From a virus, in IMG/VR virus record IMGVR_UViG_3300050190_000082, positions 1-64,000 of that record: DNA of 64,000 nucleotides. The stretch is one strand, 5' to 3'. Of this stretch, positions 1 through 9,228 are shown piece after piece (within the stretch, counting starts at the first letter, position 1; each line of letters opens with the position of its first letter). Under the pieces are notes generated by a model. That model saw nothing but the letters and a program-made list of their open reading frames with translations. It was not told where the DNA came from and searched no databases. Position numbers and translations under genes: made by a program.

Positions 1-1
1 A

Positions 2-169
2 ATAAAATTAATATCATATAATGATCTATTGAGTATTCTTAACTCTTTAACTGAACAAATTTTATTTGTTATAGGTTTTACTTATTTAATTCCTTTCTTT
101 ATACTCACAGGAGTTTATATAGTTATAAATTTCTGTATAACTCTAACTTATGATGGAAAACAGAATTAA
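2..169 (+). CDS. 3' end of a membrane protein (partial; possibly an Agr-type sensor or processing protein)
   Basis: Frame 2 is open from the window edge to TAA 167-169: ...TEQILFVIGFTYLIPFFILTGVYIVINFCITLTYDGKQN*. Strongly hydrophobic and directly upstream of the agrD-like gene. Not in the ORF track. Confidence 0.5.
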   Translation: MKLISYNDLLSILNSLTEQILFVIGFTYLIPFFILTGVYIVINFCITLTYDGKQN

Positions 170-230
170 AGTCTTTTATAATATACTTTATTTTGTTTAA
201 CATAATCAATAATTAAAGGAGGTGAAAATT

Positions 231-350
231 ATGAAAAACAAGTTATTCAAAGCAGTTATTTTAGGATTGGTTGTAATCACAGTAGTTGTAGCGGTAATGT
301 CTTCATGGGTAATCTGGCATCAACCAGAAACTCCAATTTGCATAGCATAG
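231..350 (+). CDS. agrD: AgrD-like cyclic lactone autoinducer peptide precursor (39 aa)
   Basis: SD AAAGGAGGTG at 216-224, then MKNKLFKAVILGLVVITVVVAVMSSWVIWHQPETPICIA*. Basic/hydrophobic leader, ring candidate S-W-V-I-W and an HQPExP tail typical of clostridial AgrD. Below the ORF-track cutoff. Confidence 0.85.
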   Translation: MKNKLFKAVILGLVVITVVVAVMSSWVIWHQPETPICIA

Positions 351-365
351 GCTATACATATCACA

Positions 366-395
366 GAGGGAGAGAGTATTTATTACTCCTCCCTC
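366..395 (+). terminator. Stem-loop after agrD-like gene
   Basis: GAGGGAG-agagta...tactc-CTCCCTC inverted repeat; no clear U-tract. Confidence 0.5.
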
Positions 396-424
396 AAAAC
401 ATAAATAATATTATTACAAAAAGC

Positions 425-453
425 TTGACATATTAATACAGATAAGATAATAT
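425..453 (+). promoter_or_regulatory. sigmaA-type promoter for HTH-MazF gene
   Basis: TTGACA-17bp-TAATAT. Confidence 0.55.
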
Positions 454-518
454 ATTACTTGTAGATAAGAAATTAACTAAATTATATTATACTTAATTTG
501 AAAGGCGGATGTATTAAT

Positions 519-1298
519 ATGTTCAATGCAAGAGGGAAATCAAATGAGGTAAAAGACTTTAAGAAGTTAGCAATCCTAGTTAAAAAAGCAATTGGGTATA
601 ACACTATCCCAGAATTTACAGATCTGGCAGGAATTCCAAACTCTACTAAACAAATAATTGATATTATTAATGGAAAAAGTGCTACATATCCAGAAGTTGG
701 GTTACTTCAAAAAATTGCTAATGGATCTCAACTTAGAGTCACATTTAATGAATTGAGAATTGCATGTGGATATAATTTAAATGACAGTGGAGTTGATCTA
801 AGAGGAGTAAACGTATTTAGAGGGTGGATATGTCGGTGTGACTATGGAAACGTCATAGACAGTGAGCAAGGTGGGATACGCCCCTCTCTCGTAATTCAGA
901 ACGACATGGGGAACTCACATGCACCAATAACAATGGTAATTCCTTTATCGAGCCGTTTAGGTAAAAATAATATGCCTACTCATATCAGAATTGGTCAAGA
1001 ATCTGGATTGCAATATGAATCAGAAATATTAGTAGAACAAATGAGAGTGGTATCAAAAAGTCGGTTAATGGTTGACGGTTTCATTCAGCCAATATGTGAG
1101 TGTCCCGAAGAAATTCTTAGAAGGGTCGAAATTGCAATTATGAAACAAACTGGGATGGTGGGTACAAGAGTAAACGAATCTGTTGTAGATAGATTTTTAG
1201 ATAAACTAAATGAATATGCTCATAAGGCAGAAGAAAGTTATAACAATCGTAATTATAATCAAAATACTAATCCACAAAGAGTAGCTTCATTTGCATAA
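519..1298 (+). CDS. XRE-type HTH fused to a PemK/MazF (EndoA-like) endoribonuclease domain
   Basis: C-terminal half has RG...SEQGGIRPSLVIQND.GN...PTH...ESEILVEQMR, matching Firmicute MazF. N-terminal half has an XRE-like helical pattern. Start probably ATG 519 after SD GAAAGGCGG (track start 498). Confidence 0.85.
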   Translation: MFNARGKSNEVKDFKKLAILVKKAIGYNTIPEFTDLAGIPNSTKQIIDIINGKSATYPEVGLLQKIANGSQLRVTFNELRIACGYNLNDSGVDLRGVNVFRGWICRCDYGNVIDSEQGGIRPSLVIQNDMGNSHAPITMVIPLSSRLGKNNMPTHIRIGQESGLQYESEILVEQMRVVSKSRLMVDGFIQPICECPEEILRRVEIAIMKQTGMVGTRVNESVVDRFLDKLNEYAHKAEESYNNRNYNQNTNPQRVASFA

Positions 1299-1348
1299 AC
1301 TAAGACAAAATAAATATTGGATGTGGCAATATGATTGTAGGAAATAAT

Positions 1349-1380
1349 TGAACCAGTAGAGACTGAAACATACTGGTTCA
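1349..1380 (+). terminator. Stem-loop after HTH-MazF gene
   Basis: TGAACCAGTA...TACTGGTTCA, 10-bp perfect arms. Confidence 0.5.
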
Positions 1381-1709
1381 TATAACCTCATATAATATCT
1401 TGCTTAATCTATACTAGTATACATAAAAGTTACAGTATATTAAAACCTTTGACAGCACATTCTATATCCCCACACCATCTACACATCAATGTCTGAGTCC
1501 TGTGATATAATAGAGGGTAATACATAAAATCAATGTGTCTCCACAAAGGACATTCGTCCTATTACCGCATGACTTTAGGCATATACTTATTTGTCAGAAA
1601 AGTATTATAATAAGATTAGTTAAATATAATATTTACAAAAAGCGAAAATAAAGTCGAAATTGAGTGGAATTATCCCTACGATATACAGTAAAATATCCTA
1701 AATATTTAC

Positions 1710-1738
1710 TTGCGTAATCACGGTCTGTATTATAAAAT
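1710..1738 (+). promoter_or_regulatory. sigmaA-type promoter
   Basis: TTGCGT-17bp-TAAAAT. Confidence 0.55.
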
Positions 1739-1753
1739 AAAATCAAGCAAAGA

Positions 1754-1765
1754 GAACATTTGTTC
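1754..1765. promoter_or_regulatory. LexA (SOS/Cheo) box
   Basis: GAAC-ATTT-GTTC matches the Firmicute GAAC-N4-GTTC core, just downstream of the promoter; degenerate second copy AAAT-ATAT-GTTC at 1776-1787. Confidence 0.65.
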
Positions 1766-1925
1766 TTACATAATCAAATATATGTTCTTTATATTTATTT
1801 AAGGAGGTGGTGACAATCACACTAGAGTATATTAAGTCTGTCTTATAATTATCTTAGAATCCCAAGTAGCACTATTCGTAGCAATTTTAGAAGAAATTAG
1901 AATAAAAAACAGGAGGAGATATTAG

Positions 1926-2345
1926 ATGAGTGCAACTGTAAATGACAGGTCTGTGTGGGTTATAAAGGATCAAGAGGGATGTTTCGCCCATAAGGGTAGT
2001 ATCTTCAAGGTTGAGAAGATTAAATGGGCTTACATGGGCTTCAGGACGTTCTCAGAGGATGCTAGGGGGTATGTTACTAAGGTTCAAGCAAAGAAAGCAT
2101 TGGCCGATTTAAATAATAAGAAAATATTATCCGAGTTTGAAGAATTGTCTTTTCATTTAGAAGAATGTAATTTGAGTAAAATTATTCATCAATACATAAA
2201 ATTCAAAAAGACAAAGAAAAACAATGTAGTTCTTATTGAGAAGGAAGTCAAAGGTATTATCAATAAGAACATTTTACTAAAGCCACTAACAGTTGCCTTT
2301 GGACTAGGATTGAATGCGAATAAAGTATTGACTGAATCAATTTAA
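1926..2345 (+). CDS. Hypothetical protein, probably SOS-inducible
   Basis: SD AGGAGGAG; monocistronic between the LexA-box promoter and a terminator. Confidence 0.7.
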   Translation: MSATVNDRSVWVIKDQEGCFAHKGSIFKVEKIKWAYMGFRTFSEDARGYVTKVQAKKALADLNNKKILSEFEELSFHLEECNLSKIIHQYIKFKKTKKNNVVLIEKEVKGIINKNILLKPLTVAFGLGLNANKVLTESI

Positions 2346-2365
2346 AATAATACTAAATAGATGCT

Positions 2366-2400
2366 AAAAGCTACTCACTTAAAATTGTGAGTAGCTTTTT
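2366..2400 (+). terminator. Rho-independent terminator
   Basis: AAAAGCTACTCAC / GTGAGTAGCTTTT followed by T-run. Confidence 0.85.
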
Positions 2401-2412
2401 ATTATTTTATAT

Positions 2413-2441
2413 TTGATTTTGCTGTATTTTTATGATATAAT
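2413..2441 (+). promoter_or_regulatory. sigmaA promoter with extended -10
   Basis: TTGATT-17bp-TATAAT with TG at -15/-14. Confidence 0.6.
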
Positions 2442-2492
2442 TATATTATAGTTATATATATAATTATAATATTTAAAAGGAGGATAGTAAGG

Positions 2493-4271
2493 ATGTTGAT
2501 AACCAAAACTGTAATAATTAAATGGAGTTCCAAAACTAATAAATGGTATAGAAATAAAGGGTATGTATTTACTAAATGGGGAGATGAGTTTGAAGTAAAT
2601 GTCGAGGATTTAACTGCTGGTTCTGGAATAGGCGTAAAAATAGAATGTGATGGGGAAGGGTGTACAACCCCTTTTCTTAAAAATATAAGATGGTGTGACT
2701 ATATAAAAAGTGGTCATAAAGGAGGTAAATATTATTGCCATAAATGTGCAGCAAATTTATTTGCCATTAAAAAGGGAGTAAAAACGAAACTGATGAATGG
2801 ATTGTCATTTTATCAATGGTGCTATAATAACCTATCTAAAGAAGAAGCTGATATAATATTATCTAGATGGGATTATAATAAGAATGTTGATAAAGACAAT
2901 AATATAATAACACCTAAAGATGTTAGCTTTAGCTCTGTAGGACCAGACAGAAAAGGCTACTGGTTTAAATGTTTAGATCACCCTGAACATAAGTCTGAGA
3001 GAAGAAGTATTAGCACTTATACAAGTGGCAAAAATGGGACTATTAATTGTAGTCAATGTAATACATTAGCAATGACTCATCCTGAATTTATAAAATATTT
3101 AGTAGATGAGAAAGATTTATACGAATATTCATCTGGGTCAAATAAAAGTATTATTCTAAAATGCCCCGAGTGTGGATTTGAAAAACCAATGCAAATTCCT
3201 AGATTATTAAATCAAGGGTTCGGATGTCCTAGATGTTCTGATGGGGTTAGTTATCCAGAAAAATTTATGTTTAATGTTTTGGAACAATTAAATGTAGATT
3301 TTAAAACACAATTAAATAAAACTGTATTTGATTGGTGCAATGGTTATAGATACGATTTCTATATCCCTATATTAAATTGCATAATAGAGACACACGGTAT
3401 CCAGCATTATGAGAGAAAACTAGATAAATGGATGTCATTACAAGAAACTCAGGAGAATGATAGATGTAAGGAGCGAATAGCTAAAGAAAATAGTATTGTT
3501 AATTATATAACGTTGGACTGTAGAGATTCCAAAATAGATTGGATTAAGAATAGCATAATGACCAGTAATTTGCCTTCTTTGTTAGGATTTAAAGAATTGG
3601 ACATAGATTGGCTAAAATGCCACGAATCTGCTTGTAATAGTTTAGTTAGGGTAGTTTGTGATTTGTGGAATAGTGGCATAAATAGTACACTTGAGGTAGC
3701 AAATAAATTAAAAATTAGCAGACCTACAGCTACAAGATATTTAAATAAAGGGGTCCAATTGGGGTGGTGTAATTATAACCCAGTTGAAGAGAGCGAAAAG
3801 AATCGTCTTAATAAAAAGCAATGTAAAGAAGTAATTTGTTTAAATACAAAAGAAAAATTTAATTCTTTAAAAGATGCCTGTGAAATGTATAATATTAAGA
3901 GTTCAAATATGACTTATTGTTGTAGCAATGATTATAAAGCTAAAACAGCAGGAATAGATCCTAATACAGGGAATGCTTTGGTGTGGATGTTTTACGATGA
4001 ATATGTATTAAAAAATAAAGTATTAGGTTGGTTTAATGATTATATGAATATATATGGTCATAATCATAAAGTAGTATGCTTAACTACTGGAGAAATATTT
4101 GAGTCTCAAACAGTTGCAGCAAAAGAATATAAACTAATAAATGGAGGTAATATAGGGTCTTGTTGTAATAAAAAAGCAAAGTCAGCAGGGAAGCATCCTG
4201 ATACGGGAGAACCACTAAGATGGATGCATTACGCAGAGTATGTAAGCAGTGAGATTAACCATATAATTTAA
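2493..4271 (+). CDS. Zinc-ribbon repeat / PD-(D/E)XK (Vsr-like) homing-type endonuclease with C-terminal NUMOD-like repeats
   Basis: Multiple CxxC motifs, SYPEK..RYDFY..IIETHGIQHY nuclease core, repeated VxCLxTxExF..SAG.HP.TG units; paralog of 56823..58670. Confidence 0.7.
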   Translation: MLITKTVIIKWSSKTNKWYRNKGYVFTKWGDEFEVNVEDLTAGSGIGVKIECDGEGCTTPFLKNIRWCDYIKSGHKGGKYYCHKCAANLFAIKKGVKTKLMNGLSFYQWCYNNLSKEEADIILSRWDYNKNVDKDNNIITPKDVSFSSVGPDRKGYWFKCLDHPEHKSERRSISTYTSGKNGTINCSQCNTLAMTHPEFIKYLVDEKDLYEYSSGSNKSIILKCPECGFEKPMQIPRLLNQGFGCPRCSDGVSYPEKFMFNVLEQLNVDFKTQLNKTVFDWCNGYRYDFYIPILNCIIETHGIQHYERKLDKWMSLQETQENDRCKERIAKENSIVNYITLDCRDSKIDWIKNSIMTSNLPSLLGFKELDIDWLKCHESACNSLVRVVCDLWNSGINSTLEVANKLKISRPTATRYLNKGVQLGWCNYNPVEESEKNRLNKKQCKEVICLNTKEKFNSLKDACEMYNIKSSNMTYCCSNDYKAKTAGIDPNTGNALVWMFYDEYVLKNKVLGWFNDYMNIYGHNHKVVCLTTGEIFESQTVAAKEYKLINGGNIGSCCNKKAKSAGKHPDTGEPLRWMHYAEYVSSEINHII

Positions 4272-4284
4272 TAATAATATTAGT

Positions 4285-4322
4285 AAACTATCTATACGAT
4301 CAAAAACGTATAGATAGTTTTA
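4285..4322 (+). terminator. Rho-independent terminator
   Basis: AAACTATCTATACG / CGTATAGATAGTTT, 14-bp arms. Confidence 0.8.
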
Positions 4323-4340
4323 TTATTTATGTATAATTGC

Positions 4341-4369
4341 TTGATTTTTAACATATAATATTGTATAAT
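4341..4369 (+). promoter_or_regulatory. sigmaA promoter for the repressor-like operon
   Basis: TTGATT-17bp-TATAAT. Confidence 0.6.
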
Positions 4370-4411
4370 TACAATTATATTAATGTTTATCATATGAAGG
4401 AGTGATATTTA

Positions 4412-5773
4412 ATGCTAAAAGAAAAATCAGTTGATCTCATTCAGGAACTTGATACGCTCATACAAAAGTACGCATCGAACGATAAGGTAAGGAATATAAT
4501 TGTTAACGAATTTACTAAAAGAAATATGAAGGGTAGCCTAGCTATTAGTATTCTTAATGAAAAAAGAGAATTATCTACACTAAATATTGATGAAGGGAAA
4601 GATTTAATTTTACTGTTTGTTTTTAATAAAGGGATGTTTTCTGCCTTAACTCATAAAGAAGATGATGAGTCACAACCATTAGGAGAAATAAGCGAAGGTT
4701 TAAAAATAACTCCTGAGAATTATTTTAATCCAATTGAGATTGAAAATATGAATGATTATAAGGAAGATAAAAAGTCAGATGCAAAGCGACAATATGTTTT
4801 CCATAATATGATTCAGGTTGCAGAGGGGTACTGGAAGGGAATTGTATCTGCTAAACAGTTAGCTACAATAGATGAGGGGAATGACATCATCTATTCATTT
4901 AAGACTCAGAGAGACCCCCACATTGATATCTATGGAATGAAAAGGATTCAACTTGATAAAAACAAAGTAGAAAAGATTGCAAATAGATTGCTTTCTGGGA
5001 CTCAATTTTCAGATGAGATAAAACTAAATCTGCTTCATGATGGTGAGGACCAAATATCCTATAATGATAAAAATGGAGATTTAACTATTATTTCAGGGAA
5101 TTTAAATATCTTTGATGGTTATCACAGAATGACTGCCAGTTCGATCTTTGTCACTAAATCGGAAAAGGCTATCTCCTTCAACTGGGGGCTAGTAATCACT
5201 AATTTCAGTGAGAAGAAAACTCAAGAATTTATGGTTCAAATCAATGAACAGAAACCTATGAGACAGGAACACATTAAGGCGTTAGATACCTCAAAATTGG
5301 GTAATATAGTGTCAGATGCAATTAGAGATATTGATACTAGTGAATTTGCACAAAATATTAAAGATTCTTCAGCAGAACTAAAGTTTTCAGGTCTGGTTCG
5401 CAAATCCCTACTGGCAACTAGTATAGAAGAATGCTACAAAGATAAATTAACTAACCGCCTTCAAGCAAAACCAATTGCAAGACATATTGCACAAGTTATG
5501 GATTATATTATAGGATTAAATCTTGAAGCGTTTATAGTCAATCCTGATCCAACTCACAGTTATATAGCACATAGTAATATGTTTGCAGGGTATGTTGCCT
5601 TGTCAGAAAGATTATATGATGTAAATGGTTGGGAAGATATATTGGAAGAAGTAATTGATAGAATTGATTTCAATGTAGAAAATGTATTTTGGAAAGATAT
5701 TGGGTTATTAGAAACTGATATGAAAAAATCAACGAGAAATAACCTTTACAAATTCTTTTATAAATTAGTATAA
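4412..5773 (+). CDS. DGQHR/ParB-Srx-like domain protein (SPbeta YopQ/SroE-like)
   Basis: QR motif and IFDGYHR motif, 453 aa, directly upstream of an integrase-like gene as in SPbeta yopQ-yopR. Confidence 0.6.
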   Translation: MLKEKSVDLIQELDTLIQKYASNDKVRNIIVNEFTKRNMKGSLAISILNEKRELSTLNIDEGKDLILLFVFNKGMFSALTHKEDDESQPLGEISEGLKITPENYFNPIEIENMNDYKEDKKSDAKRQYVFHNMIQVAEGYWKGIVSAKQLATIDEGNDIIYSFKTQRDPHIDIYGMKRIQLDKNKVEKIANRLLSGTQFSDEIKLNLLHDGEDQISYNDKNGDLTIISGNLNIFDGYHRMTASSIFVTKSEKAISFNWGLVITNFSEKKTQEFMVQINEQKPMRQEHIKALDTSKLGNIVSDAIRDIDTSEFAQNIKDSSAELKFSGLVRKSLLATSIEECYKDKLTNRLQAKPIARHIAQVMDYIIGLNLEAFIVNPDPTHSYIAHSNMFAGYVALSERLYDVNGWEDILEEVIDRIDFNVENVFWKDIGLLETDMKKSTRNNLYKFFYKLV

Positions 5774-5796
5774 TTAATTATAGGGGGTATTTTAAA

Positions 5797-6837
5797 ATGG
5801 TTGAACAAAATGAATTACAAAGTGAAGAAGTGTCTTTTGAAGTTGATGCAGAATATAAGGAAGAATTTTTAGAAAAACAATTGAAATCTACTAGAAGTTT
5901 TTATTCTTATGTTCTTAAAAAAGCAGATGAGTTTGAAGTGCAGTTGGGTTTAAAAATCTACGACTTTTCAACAGACGATAGAGATGAGTTGCTAAAAGTT
6001 CAATACAAAAACAAAAATGTTTGGGCATTCCAAACTGTTCTAAGCCCCTTGAGAACGTATGTAGATTTTTGTATTGGTAAGAGTTTAGTTAGGCATAATC
6101 AAAATAGATTCTCTACGATTCTTCCAGCAGATTATAACCAATATACTAATGATCAAGCGAAAGAAAACTCTTATATTACACAATCTGAAAATAGAGAATT
6201 CCAAAAAGGGTTAATAAATTATCAGGATAAATTAATTATTGAATTATTGGGATTAGGTGTTAGAGGCCGAACTGAAAAAGGAAATACTTTAGAGGAATTA
6301 ATCAACTTAAAAGTGAGCGATATTAATTATGAGGAGAAGCAAATATATCTAACAAGTAACGATGGCGAATTAAGATATTTGGAAGTTGATGATTATACTT
6401 TAGACCTAATTAAGAAAACAATTGACAGAGGATTTTATCTATTTGGTAATGGATTGAAAGGAAAGCCTAATGAAGATGGTGTATATGAAAAGACTGATAA
6501 AGGATTTATTATAAATGAGACAGAATATGTTTTCAGAACTCCTGGAAAGAAGAAATTTGGCAAAACAGATTATCAACTATTTGCTAATCGAGTTCAGAGG
6601 ATACAGGGATGGTTACAAAAACCATATTTAACTGTCAGTAATTTATACTTCTCGTCTATAATTTCATGGGCAAAAAAACTAAAAGAAGAAAAGGGCGAGC
6701 CATTAACTAGAGAAGATTATATTAGAATTAATGAGAAATTCCGATTTGGTGGATCAGTCTCAGAAAATCCAAAAGCAGGTGAGAAATATGTTTATAAAAC
6801 TCGTGAAATTGTTGAATCTTATTTAGATAAGGAGTAA
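5797..6837 (+). CDS. Tyrosine-recombinase-fold protein with degenerate active site (SPbeta YopR/MrpR/SroF-like repressor)
   Basis: Box I DKLIIELLGLGVRG...EELINLKVSDI is present; the HxxR region reads LTVSNLYFS instead. Confidence 0.65.
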   Translation: MVEQNELQSEEVSFEVDAEYKEEFLEKQLKSTRSFYSYVLKKADEFEVQLGLKIYDFSTDDRDELLKVQYKNKNVWAFQTVLSPLRTYVDFCIGKSLVRHNQNRFSTILPADYNQYTNDQAKENSYITQSENREFQKGLINYQDKLIIELLGLGVRGRTEKGNTLEELINLKVSDINYEEKQIYLTSNDGELRYLEVDDYTLDLIKKTIDRGFYLFGNGLKGKPNEDGVYEKTDKGFIINETEYVFRTPGKKKFGKTDYQLFANRVQRIQGWLQKPYLTVSNLYFSSIISWAKKLKEEKGEPLTREDYIRINEKFRFGGSVSENPKAGEKYVYKTREIVESYLDKE

Positions 6838-6840
6838 GTT

Positions 6841-7245
6841 ATGCAAAATACACTAATAGAGATGTGGAAAAAATATAACTTACTTGTGGAATTCAAATTA
6901 GGAATGAATAAAAAAGGATACTCTACAAGAGATTTGTATAGCATCCAAGTTCAAATTGTTTTATTAACAGAAATGATTCAGATTGAAAGTATGAACGTTT
7001 TAGGTAATTTATTGTTGAAAAAAAGTTATTTGAGATTGCTAAGATGTATTGATAGGGGCATTGAATATTTACCAGACATTGTAGATAATCCAGAAGGTTG
7101 GTGTTTAAATAAAATAGAGAATGATATAGAGTCATGGATAAATGAAGATACACTAATATTCACATGCAAAAATAATACAAATGTATTTAGTAAATTATCT
7201 AGGAATGATAACGGAAGAAAATATCAAGATGGCAAATGGCAATAG
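6841..7245 (+). CDS. Hypothetical protein
   Basis: SD AAGGAG; coupled to the upstream gene. Confidence 0.6.
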   Translation: MQNTLIEMWKKYNLLVEFKLGMNKKGYSTRDLYSIQVQIVLLTEMIQIESMNVLGNLLLKKSYLRLLRCIDRGIEYLPDIVDNPEGWCLNKIENDIESWINEDTLIFTCKNNTNVFSKLSRNDNGRKYQDGKWQ

Positions 7246-7259
7246 AGAGGAGTGAAATT

Positions 7260-7664
7260 ATGAATTTTGGAGAAAAAATTACTTCATATAAAGAACGATT
7301 AAATCATAAAAACTTTCAAGATTTCGGAAGGGCTGCTAATTGCTCAGGCGACTGGCTGAATAACGCATCGAAAATGGAAGAAATTAAAGTTGTTGATATG
7401 CATAATCTAATAAATTTATGTGATTATCTTGGCATCACGATCAACCAATTAGTTGTCAACGATGAATATCTCTTAGATAGTGATAATGTAACTAAAAATG
7501 TCAGTAATTCAGATGATATAGGAGCATTACTAAATCAAATAGTATCTTATTTGAGTAATAACGAGGACTGTAAGCTCGATGGAGTATTGATGAATGATAA
7601 AGCAAAGGAAGTTTGCAAAGATAGCTTAGGCGTAGTTAGAATATTAACAAAACAACATTTATAA
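7260..7664 (+). CDS. XRE-family HTH transcriptional regulator
   Basis: FGEKI..QDFGRAANCS..WL....LINLCDYLGITINQLV pattern; ATG 7260 after SD GAGGAGTG (track start 7236). Confidence 0.75.
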   Translation: MNFGEKITSYKERLNHKNFQDFGRAANCSGDWLNNASKMEEIKVVDMHNLINLCDYLGITINQLVVNDEYLLDSDNVTKNVSNSDDIGALLNQIVSYLSNNEDCKLDGVLMNDKAKEVCKDSLGVVRILTKQHL

Positions 7665-7676
7665 AAGGAGGGCAAT

Positions 7677-7871
7677 ATGTTGGATATCAATGAGGAAAGT
7701 GTGACAATTAAACGTTGTCACACAAATCATTGTCAAGTTTGCGGTAGAATGTATGAAGAAATTGAATTAGTATTTTTTATTCCCCTAGACAATAATCTTG
7801 TTTGTAGAAAGTGTGCTACAGAATCTGGATGTGAGTTTGAGCCAAGGATTTATGTTAAGGAACCAGATTAA
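7677..7871 (+). CDS. Small zinc-finger protein
   Basis: CQVC...CRKC; SD AGGAGG. Confidence 0.6.
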   Translation: MLDINEESVTIKRCHTNHCQVCGRMYEEIELVFFIPLDNNLVCRKCATESGCEFEPRIYVKEPD

Positions 7872-7892
7872 AATATTATTTATAATTTGTCC

Positions 7893-7921
7893 TTGACATT
7901 ATTTTCAAGTAATAGTATAAT
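7893..7921 (+). promoter_or_regulatory. Consensus sigmaA promoter
   Basis: TTGACA-17bp-TATAAT, with an extra TATAAT 6 bp upstream of -35. Confidence 0.8.
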
Positions 7922-8029
7922 TAGATATAATATATTTGAGGATGTGATGATTATGGAATAAGAAAAAGTGATGTATAAAACGTCACATACATAAGACCAA
8001 AATAATAATATAGAAATGAGTTAAGGCAA

Positions 8030-8632
8030 ATGAGGAAGTTTAAATCTACTACTGTTCGCAAATTTGGGGTGATTGTTCTAATATTCACTTTGTTACTAAG
8101 TCAGGGTGGTATGGTTCTAAAGAATCACATTATCCCAAAAAAGAAAATTATAAAAGCAATCAATTCTAATATACTTGCAAAATTCAGAAGCCAATACATA
8201 GTAATACCACACAAAAAAATTATTGATGAAAAAGTAAAAATCATTAATATTGAAATGGCTAGAAAACCAAAAGCAATGGTATTTGTTATAACGGCATATG
8301 ACCTTTCAGTTGCCTCGTGTGGTAAATCCACGAGTGACCCTGCATATGGTATATCTCGTGGTGGATATGACTTAACAGGAAAGACATGGAGAACAGCAAG
8401 GAGTATTTCTGTTGACACAAATATTATACCTTTAGGAACAAGAGTATTAATTAAATTCAAGGATAAGAAATATAGTAAGTATGAAGGAGTGTATGTCGCA
8501 AATGATACTGGATCTGCTATAAAGGGAAGAAAAATAGATTTATTTCTTGGCGACTTTGGCTCAGAAAAGCCAAGTAAATCAGCAATTAATTTTGGAAAGG
8601 TATTGGCAGATGTAACAATTTTAAAAAATTAA
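8030..8632 (+). CDS. 3D-domain (MltA-like) cell-wall protein with N-terminal membrane anchor
   Basis: ITAY..., SVDTNIIPLGT, ANDTGSAIKGRKIDLF motifs. Confidence 0.85.
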   Translation: MRKFKSTTVRKFGVIVLIFTLLLSQGGMVLKNHIIPKKKIIKAINSNILAKFRSQYIVIPHKKIIDEKVKIINIEMARKPKAMVFVITAYDLSVASCGKSTSDPAYGISRGGYDLTGKTWRTARSISVDTNIIPLGTRVLIKFKDKKYSKYEGVYVANDTGSAIKGRKIDLFLGDFGSEKPSKSAINFGKVLADVTILKN

Positions 8633-8660
8633 TTATATTGTAACTAATAAATAATATATA

Positions 8661-8855
8661 TTGAAAGGAAATGATAAATTAATGGGGAAACAAGATTGTG
8701 TAATTATTCCATTCGAAGGATTCAAGGAGAAAATTCGTGTTCAGAAACAACTTGATAGTGAAATGATAAAGAAATATGGCAAAAACAGATACAAACTAAG
8801 TATTTTAGATAACTGCGTTATGGCAATTTGCCCTTCAGACACCATTTATTTTTAG
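8661..8855 (+). CDS. Hypothetical protein
   Basis: ORF with SD GAAAGGA; true start probably the internal ATG. Confidence 0.55.
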   Translation: MKGNDKLMGKQDCVIIPFEGFKEKIRVQKQLDSEMIKKYGKNRYKLSILDNCVMAICPSDTIYF

Positions 8856-8904
8856 TAGTATTCCAATTAAATATAATATAATACATATAATATGAAGGAG
8901 TGTT

Positions 8905-9228
8905 TTGATGAAGGTTATTGAGAGTAAAGAAACGATAGTAATAGAAGACAAATTAATAGCAGTAGCATGCAATAAATGTGGAGAGATTGTGGATTTTGAG
9001 CAATCACAACCTTACCAAAGTTTTGACATAACTTTTGGGTATGGACCAGATGATAATAAAAATCTTAGATTTGAGATATGCGATGAGTGTATCAAAGATA
9101 TTGTAAAAGGTTTTAAAATAGAACCTGAAGTAACAGTTAATGATGTTTCAGACTGGGAGTGGCCTATAGAAGAAACAGAAAACTTCACTCCAAATTCCAT
9201 TAGGGAGGAGAATACATATGAAGATTAG
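8905..9228 (+). CDS. Hypothetical zinc-binding protein
   Basis: CNKC...CDEC; SD AAGGAG. Confidence 0.6.
   Translation: MMKVIESKETIVIEDKLIAVACNKCGEIVDFEQSQPYQSFDITFGYGPDDNKNLRFEICDECIKDIVKGFKIEPEVTVNDVSDWEWPIEETENFTPNSIREENTYED

Follow-up and report, generated by a model that had tools for sequence, protein, structure and literature searches.

The first genes of a 64,000-nucleotide stretch of phage DNA (bases 1-64000 of the 153,759-bp IMG/VR virus record IMGVR_UViG_3300050190_000082, which is rated linear and 92% complete; "the window" in the following) form a locus which we read as the right-hand part of a conserved Agr-type cassette. The cassette lacks a kinase, is placed where the SPbeta phages carry the arbitrium genes and would work as a communication module of the phage, a reading to which we give about an even chance. 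The locus codes for an AgrD-type peptide precursor, a helix-turn-helix (HTH) protein fused to MazF and a protein whose gene is preceded by a LexA box, and it is followed by homologues of the SPbeta repressor genes yopQ and yopR. The record belongs to a large uncultured Clostridium-type phage, roughly of the 150-180-kb class. Its GC content is about 30%, and nearly all genes of the window lie on the + strand.

The peptide gene agrD is found at positions 231..350 (+ strand) and codes for a 39-residue precursor of a predicted cyclic (Ser-lactone) pentapeptide SWVIW; the assignment draws on the family TIGR04223, the ribosome binding site and synteny. An AgrD-like peptide had already been claimed at this place in an earlier note on this DNA. 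Indeed the open reading frame (ORF) scores 28.8 bits against the NCBIfam AgrD family TIGR04223, well above the curated cut-off of 19, and its homologue in the related locus L005 (L and P numbers are our handles for loci and contigs) scores 23.9 bits. The Pfam families AgrD (PF05931) and AgrB (PF04647) have no match in the record. A strong Shine-Dalgarno (SD) sequence, AAGGAGG, precedes the gene by 7 nt. The ring and cleavage motif, SWVIW followed by HQPETP, aligns with CLWFT followed by HQPEEP of chromosomal clostridial AgrD, thus the window peptide carries a serine at the ring-forming position. Homologous AgrD with a variable ring occur at the equivalent place in 13 relatives, and in every cassette agrD lies between the gene of a membrane protein, called TM264 here, and the fusion gene. 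Conservation extends over the leader and the motif [HNY]QPxTPxC behind the ring, and the five ring residues are hypervariable (SWVIW, SAIIW, SMVVW, SAFLW, CFAVW, SMFFS, SWLFT, SWLWS, SWLGA, SWFWL and others). At the level of sequence this pattern of ring variability is that of the agr specificity groups and of the AimP variants. An inverted repeat 3' of agrD (366..395, + strand) can form a hairpin and is a probable terminator; the hairpin and the T-run behind it are conserved in the type-1 relatives.

In the product of the next gene (519..1298, + strand) an XRE-type HTH domain is joined to a MazF/PemK endoribonuclease domain, which is followed by a C-terminal tail of about 50 residues. The frame is open from a TTG at 498, and the ATG at 519 agrees with the relatives. 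That the protein is an HTH-MazF fusion, as the earlier note had it, follows from Pfam, from a structural model and from fold searches. Residues 108-216 match PemK_toxin with E 2.8e-21. The AlphaFold model (predicted local distance difference test, pLDDT, 77) superimposes on B. subtilis MazF with a template modelling (TM) score of 0.89; over B. subtilis, B. anthracis and S. aureus MazF the TM scores are 0.87-0.91 at 32-35% identity, and the MazF fold is matched with Z 15.8. Residues 12-95 match XRE HTH folds throughout the VIA list, with 2ofy (Z 9.6) and C.AhdI (Z 8.4) leading, then SinR, ImmR, ComR and HipB. A profile of this N-terminal domain finds 821 proteins in a library of 1.84 billion proteins, several of them with Pfam HTH_3 on the matched stretch. 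The catalytic arginine R128 is invariant among the fusions, and S152, which is aligned with a threonine of Bacillus MazF, shows at least 90% conservation, the fusions having either Ser or Thr there. We take the roles of both positions to be those in the B. subtilis MazF structure. The MazF domain is apparently intact. A weak match to Phage_integrase within the fusion (E 1e-3 to 0.012) was treated as chance. A search of viral_contigs by peptide patterns found no close relatives of the fusion, and no MazE, AbrB or RHH family member is present among the 10 ORFs of positions 2-7871 or in the gene tables of the relatives. Sequence and conservation point to a promoter-like site of the fusion gene, TTGACA-17-TAATAT at 425..453 (+ strand), whose TTGACATATTA element is invariant in five relatives. 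At the C-terminus of most fusions a long helix is followed by a conserved ..(V/A)x(F/Y)A (window 1250-1298). This motif is absent from L015 and L021, is replaced in L009 and L023 and may be a degron or a docking tail.

The repressor module is located further downstream. The gene at 4412..5773 (+ strand), with a promoter-like site at 4341-4369 in front of it, codes for a DndB/DGQHR-like protein which tblastn and family searches identify as a YopQ/SroE homologue (3e-11 and 81% coverage against yopQ of SPBc2, 9e-10 against the phi3T homologue). The gene at 5797..6837 (+ strand) codes for a YopR/MrpR/SroF homologue and thus, by homology, for an integrase-fold master repressor. It scores 40.7 bits against Pfam MrpR_N_CB (PF22822, cut-off 27) and is related to SPBc2 YopR by BLASTP (5e-10) and by hhalign (99% probability, E 6e-18, 302 columns). 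Both are full-length homologues of the SPbeta proteins, so that the kinship of the two genes, which the earlier note had left to be checked, is settled. In SPBc2, yopK (aimR) and yopL (aimP) are found a few genes 5' of yopQ-yopR.

The YopR-like protein, for which the protein collection yields 79 relatives, nearly all of them with both MrpR domains, led to the contigs and IMG/VR loci that were examined as relatives. About 11 distinct related phages with 39-68% YopR identity, one of the records being rated 100% complete, share one order of genes: small mazF, [homing endonuclease], [agrB], DUF5317, TM264, agrD, HTH::mazF, [agrB], [second TM264 paralogue], orf139, [homing endonuclease], yopQ, yopR, orf134 and XRE, where brackets mark genes that are not always at that place. 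The agrB gene precedes DUF5317 in the subgroup closest to the window (L005, L015, L016, L021) and follows the fusion in the others. AgrB of L005 matches PF04647 with 6.8e-29, and the His..Cys spacing is kept in the AgrB proteins of the cassettes. Distant relatives with 31% YopR identity do not have the cassette, and one of these loci, L027, still has a MazF gene just 5' of yopQ. The cassette is also exchanged as a whole between phages whose repressor modules are nearly identical: between L007 and L018 the flanks are 97-98% identical at the DNA level and the cassettes are unrelated, and L014 and L015 share 91% identity in YopQ and 23-35% in the cassette proteins.

The window itself begins within the cassette. 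Window base 1 is contig base 1 and lies inside a membrane protein gene, with the frame 2-169 being open to base 1; our finding hence adjoins the contig end. The frame (2..169, + strand) gives the C-terminal 55 residues of a 7-helix membrane protein of the TM264 family, since in tblastn it is 36% identical to residues 206-260 of the 264-residue protein of L005, and thus the window lacks the left-hand part of the cassette. Neither AgrB nor DUF5317 nor the small MazF was found in this 92%-complete record; going by the relatives, all three are probably encoded in the missing 5' part of the phage genome. A search for contigs overlapping the first bases of the window found none, and the 3' end of the contig holds neither AgrB nor a continuation of the gene cut at base 1. 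Measured against these results the earlier note fares well in most respects. The linkage of peptide, MazF fusion and LexA-box gene is conserved at this position in the roughly 11 distinct relatives, and every element it listed is present at or near the place it gave. It did not see that the window is cut within a cassette and so missed AgrB, DUF5317, TM264 and a second, small MazF; and its Agr reading was right about the type of peptide and overlooked the absence of AgrC and AgrA.

A hint to the partner of the peptide comes from six contigs of different samples, which agree fully in YopQ and YopR and make up two haplotypes. Between the haplotypes the small MazF, AgrB, orf139, the endonuclease, YopQ, YopR, orf134 and the XRE protein are 99-100% identical (AgrB 99.5%). 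TM264 is 67% identical, AgrD 79% (with the ring SWLFT against SWLWS) and DUF5317 about 82-90%. The fusion differs at 7 residues, all of them in the HTH at positions 5-58, and its MazF domain is 99-100% identical. At the nucleotide level the identity is 58-77% across TM264 and agrD and is 100% again from about codon 75 of the fusion. Within TM264 the substitutions are concentrated in helices 3-6 and in the outer loops 4 and 6, and helices 1-2 and the cytoplasmic tail are conserved. Because TM264 drops to 67% while AgrB stays at 99.5%, it is TM264 and not AgrB that appears to be tied to the peptide specificity, which points to TM264 as the specificity partner of the AgrD peptide.

The TM264 model has seven long helices (pLDDT 75), and by the positive-inside rule we place the N-terminus outside and the C-terminus inside the cell. 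Foldseek against the PDB gave nothing at E<=0.001, with matches to bacteriocin-immunity complexes at chance level; a fold search of the atlas returned only its own, mostly viral cluster, and a word-indexed protein search only family members. A lead from the atlas feature search, "sensory transduction protein kinase" (0.92), was not counted as evidence. Among 148 Clostridiaceae genomes the TM264 profile has one real match, and this is a phage contig of a Clostridium sp. metagenome-assembled genome (MAG). Two further weak matches in genomes lie in frames of about 310 residues, and the one inspected (L054) resembled an unrelated transporter. Four phages have TM264 paralogues without an adjacent peptide gene (L003 6921-7784, L015 6995-7807, L016 7088-7888 and L021 5171-5992). 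These orphans sit just 3' of the fusion or of agrB and are not in our window; neither a TM264 paralogue nor AgrB has left a trace in the window's gap at 1299-1925. With the TM264 of the L007/L013 type the orphans share 43-48% identity, with type-1 TM264 22-28% and, in L003, 32% with the TM264 of the same phage; their sequences fit an orphan receptor.

The genes 5' of the peptide gene have a parallel in bacterial chromosomes. DUF5317 is common in Clostridiaceae (56 of 149 genomes match), and the Clostridium MAG and five other Clostridiaceae genomes have a chromosomal operon of DUF5317, a membrane protein of about 160 residues, agrB and agrD. This layout matches the published four-gene operon CPE1563-CPE1562-agrB-agrD of C. 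perfringens (PMC2706048), in which DUF5317 would correspond to CPE1563. TM264 aligns weakly with the small membrane protein of these operons (hhalign E 1.6e-3, probability 16%, with shared PE and IPS motifs). As clostridial chromosomes have DUF5317 and a small membrane protein in front of agrBD, the phage cassette seems to derive from a host-type agr operon. It looks like such an operon in which the membrane protein has been enlarged and made hypervariable and to which two MazF genes have been added.

Between the fusion and the repressor genes lies a Cheo-type LexA box, GAACATTTGTTC, at 1754..1765 (no strand assigned), recognized by its motif and its conservation in relatives. It is the only GAAC-N4-GTTC in the 64-kb window, and as 0.34 occurrences are expected this is not significant alone. 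A box with 0-1 mismatch is found 35-242 nt 5' of the orf139 homologue in 12 of the 12 relatives that have one, and where the promoter is readable (L003, L005, L014) it lies between -35 and -10. The gene behind the box, orf139 (1926..2345, + strand), is defined by synteny: its product has no match to a Pfam, NCBIfam or PHROG family, homologues with about 28-50% identity are found 5' of yopQ in 12 loci, and a strong terminator follows at 2366-2399. The LexA-box gene of the earlier note is thereby upheld, and by analogy orf139 is a candidate for an SOS-induced antirepressor of the YopR-like repressor. In the leader, window 1790-1925, and in the leaders of L003-L021 a motif AAGGAGGT(A/G) is kept in most relatives directly 3' of the LexA-box promoter. 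It lies about 100 nt 5' of the real SD and ATG of orf139, the frame is open from the motif in L003, and the motif could represent a tiny ORF or an element of the leader.

We also searched for the parts that such systems are expected to have. AimR (YopK) of SPBc2 as query gave no match at E<=1, neither in this record nor in four related ones, of which one is rated 100% complete; the sensitivity of this search to a very distant AimR is limited. No TPR or RRNPP family member was found among the scanned ORFs or in the gene tables of the relatives. The absence of AimR from the window, as stated in the earlier note, therefore holds; the sequence upstream of the window lies beyond the contig start, and in the four related records AimR was not found either. 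An AgrC-type kinase (HATPase_c_5) and AgrA (LytTR) have no match in this record, and in the four relatives nothing exceeds the cut-off. Full-text literature searches returned the papers on arbitrium and MazF, Sar, MrpR and phiCDHM1, none of which describes this cassette. New in the present analysis are the co-variation in the two haplotypes, the chromosomal parallel to DUF5317-TM-agrBD, the fold evidence for the XRE domain and the survey of the box across the relatives.

The cassette shares with the arbitrium locus of the SPbeta phages a gene for a secreted, phage-specific and hypervariable peptide directly 5' of homologous yopQ/yopR (sroE/sroF), a link to MazF and a separate SOS-box gene beside the repressor. 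In phi3T, arbitrium controls inhibitors of the MazF of the host, whose activity tips the phage towards lysogeny (PMC10769878). The repressor SroF is switched off by a small antirepressor, Sar, whose gene is controlled through a LexA box (bioRxiv 10.1101/2025.11.27.690993). The cassette differs from arbitrium in that no AimR/RRNPP receptor was found and in that its peptide is of the AgrD type and presumably cyclised by AgrB, whereas AimP is a linear hexapeptide imported by Opp. Further, its MazF is encoded by the phage and fused to an HTH, whereas the MazF of arbitrium is a host protein, and its host is clostridial and not a Bacillus. The SOS gene of the cassette lies upstream of the repressor and has no demonstrated homology to Sar. 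With Agr (agrBDCA) and the clostridial four-gene operon the cassette has in common an AgrD above the cut-off, AgrB in the relatives, DUF5317 and a membrane protein 5' of the peptide gene, and the ring with its HQPE(E/T)P motif. In contrast to Agr it has neither the AgrC kinase nor AgrA, and most alleles have serine for the ring cysteine; in contrast to the clostridial operon its membrane protein is longer, phage-only, hypervariable and of seven helices, and two MazF genes are interleaved. As to MazEF, the MazF fold is shared (Z 15.8, TM score 0.89, with 33-34% identity to Bacillus and Staphylococcus MazF), but no MazE-type gene is nearby, and the toxin domain has an XRE HTH in front of it in the same protein and behind it a conserved tail that ends in ..FA. 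The C. difficile phage phiCDHM1, finally, is reported to carry agr genes of no known role, among them agrB and agrD (PMC3901668). Reportedly it has an agrC homologue too, is a small myovirus and has its agr genes not tied to an SPbeta-type repressor or to MazF.

From the position of the cassette, the co-variation and the analogy to arbitrium we suggest that it may control the choice between lysis and lysogeny. The gene identities, the synteny, the co-variation and the conserved box are the ground on which we propose the following steps, all of them inferred as far as function is concerned. AgrB, which is part of the missing 5' portion here, would cyclise AgrD to a secreted 5-residue lactone or thiolactone with a phage-specific ring. 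TM264, which co-varies with the ring, would be the cognate partner of the peptide and most likely its receptor. The signal could then reach the XRE-HTH::MazF fusion and perhaps the small MazF, alter transcription or RNA cleavage or both and bias the phage to lysogeny; since MazF activity promotes lysogeny in arbitrium, we propose the parallel for the output of the fusion. Independently, DNA damage would remove LexA from the orf139 promoter, where the box is seen and where the role as antirepressor would be analogous to that of Sar. It is conceivable, if rather doubtful, that TM264 stands for a new class of kinase-less 7-helix receptors for cyclic Agr peptides which signal directly to the fusion. 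This would be a two-protein route without phosphorylation that leads from a peptide outside the cell to transcription and RNA cleavage, and a private, allele-coded "language" of lysis and lysogeny, with the orphan paralogues letting some phages listen to other lineages.

Alternatively, the agr genes could be an accessory gene set for host manipulation. The phage would then carry a copy of a host-type four-gene agr operon whose autoinducing peptide acts on a VirS- or AgrC-like sensor of the host and thereby changes host physiology. The MazF genes would have no part in this and serve as toxins or in abortive infection or superinfection exclusion, and the site beside the repressor would reflect no more than an accessory region expressed in lysogeny. 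Such a copy is what the like layout of DUF5317, small membrane protein, agrB and agrD in the Clostridium MAG and the five Clostridiaceae genomes suggests (it matches PMC2706048), no kinase or regulator was found in the phage, and some relatives have MazF without Agr; phiCDHM1 with its agr genes reported without a known role (PMC3901668) is a further example. But TM264 is phage-specific, the one match among the 148 Clostridiaceae genomes being a phage contig, and it co-varies with the ring in otherwise identical phages. A peptide aimed at a single host sensor should be constrained and not hypervariable, and the cassette stays beside yopQ/yopR even at 39% repressor identity. We therefore hold this explanation to be unlikely.

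It might also be that the phages do communicate but that a host histidine kinase receives the signal, with TM264 and DUF5317 serving in maturation, export or self-protection and the MazF proteins acting downstream or independently. The weak alignment of TM264 with the small membrane protein that precedes agrB in chromosomes (E 1.6e-3, probability 16%) and the presence of DUF5317 in chromosomal agr operons would fit this. We consider it quite improbable, as AgrB, the processing enzyme known to bear specificity, is 99.5% identical between haplotypes that differ so strongly in TM264, and as TM264 paralogues without a peptide gene of their own make better receptors than maturation factors. A small secreted peptide that is tightly linked to a multi-pass membrane protein and diversifies together with it is typical of bacteriocins and their immunity proteins. 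AgrD and TM264 are linked and co-diversify in just this way, so that the AgrD-like product could be antagonistic and TM264 the immunity protein in a competition between lysogens, with the MazF genes being a separate matter. The peptide, however, scores above the AgrD cut-off and is accompanied by an AgrB that keeps the His..Cys spacing, there was no match to a bacteriocin or immunity family, and the fold matches to such complexes are at chance level; this makes an antagonistic peptide very improbable. Several points count against the communication module which we prefer. Its support comes from sequence and models. Owing to the truncation of the contig four fifths of TM264 as well as AgrB, DUF5317 and the small MazF are absent from the window. 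The haplotype pair is one replacement event seen in several samples and does not represent independent replicates, and at least two relatives (the P0002 contig and L019) keep MazF without Agr genes. For TM264 no similarity to AgrC could be detected, nor to any fold, solved or predicted, beyond its own family, and it sits where the chromosomal agr operons have a small membrane protein that is possibly biosynthetic. orf139 is likened to Sar by analogy and not by homology, and it lies upstream of the repressor while Sar lies downstream. Lastly, the phage is presumably temperate, yet an integrase above cut-off is absent from the 92%-complete record: the one integrase-like match, to a 370-residue frame (contig 114,891-115,394; G000, L069), reaches 24.1 bits against a Pfam cut-off of 27.1, and a large serine recombinase domain was not found.

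Between orf139 and yopQ the window has a homing-endonuclease-like gene with a 592-residue product (2493..4271, + strand), an optional insertion identified by PHROG. It matches phrog_4538 (3.7e-73) and phrog_559 HNH, contains treble-clef zinc fingers and is followed by a terminator at 4285-4320. It is at this place also in L007, L011, L017, L018 and L021 and not there in L003, L005, L008, L014, L015 and L016; because copies are found at other cassette sites it is regarded as a mobile insertion. 3' of the repressor, synteny defines a conserved gene for 134 residues of no known family (orf134, 6841..7245, + strand; 52-62% identity in the relatives having a homologue). Next comes an XRE/Cro-like HTH protein (7236..7664, + strand), which matches HTH_26 weakly (E 0.011; 3.7e-4 for the homologue in L005). 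A protein of 64 residues encoded at 7677-7871, which contains two CxxC pairs, and its homologue in L008 share 93% identity, where the neighbouring genes are about 45-55% identical, and this indicates mosaic exchange.

Upstream of the LexA box a non-coding block of about 200 nt (1463..1660, no strand assigned) contains the palindrome AGGACATTCGTCCT, an extended -10 element (TGTGATATAAT) and two ATCAATGT(G)TCT repeats. It was recognized by its 85% identity to L008 7643-7833, the flanking proteins being 37-41% identical. The block has no Rfam match and a fold z-score of -1.7, and a 38-residue ORF within it (1535-1651) was rejected as the frame is closed in L008. It could be an operator/promoter module exchanged by recombination or a small RNA. 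The Rfam scan of window positions 1-9000 gave chance matches only. At its 3' end (L002 12300-13760, contig 152,300-153,759) the contig has about 1.5 kb without ORFs. This stretch is strand-asymmetric: a G/T-rich block comes first, then an A/C/T-rich one made up of short words (ACTAA or ATACTA, for instance). It is possibly a terminus, packaging or origin region.

In summary, the cassette is, by analogy, a strong candidate for a second way in which phages communicate with each other, next to arbitrium, which to our knowledge is the main peptide communication of phages described so far and is confined to phages of the Bacillus group. If so, viral communication would have evolved more than once on one repressor chassis, the second system combining, in anaerobic Clostridia, Agr chemistry with a membrane partner found only in phages and with MazF RNases that the phage itself carries. 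The haplotypes with the rings SWLFT and SWLWS are a natural pair suited to a comparison of specificity. A function would then also be at hand for agr loci without a kinase and for two so far unexplained genes of the clostridial agr operon.

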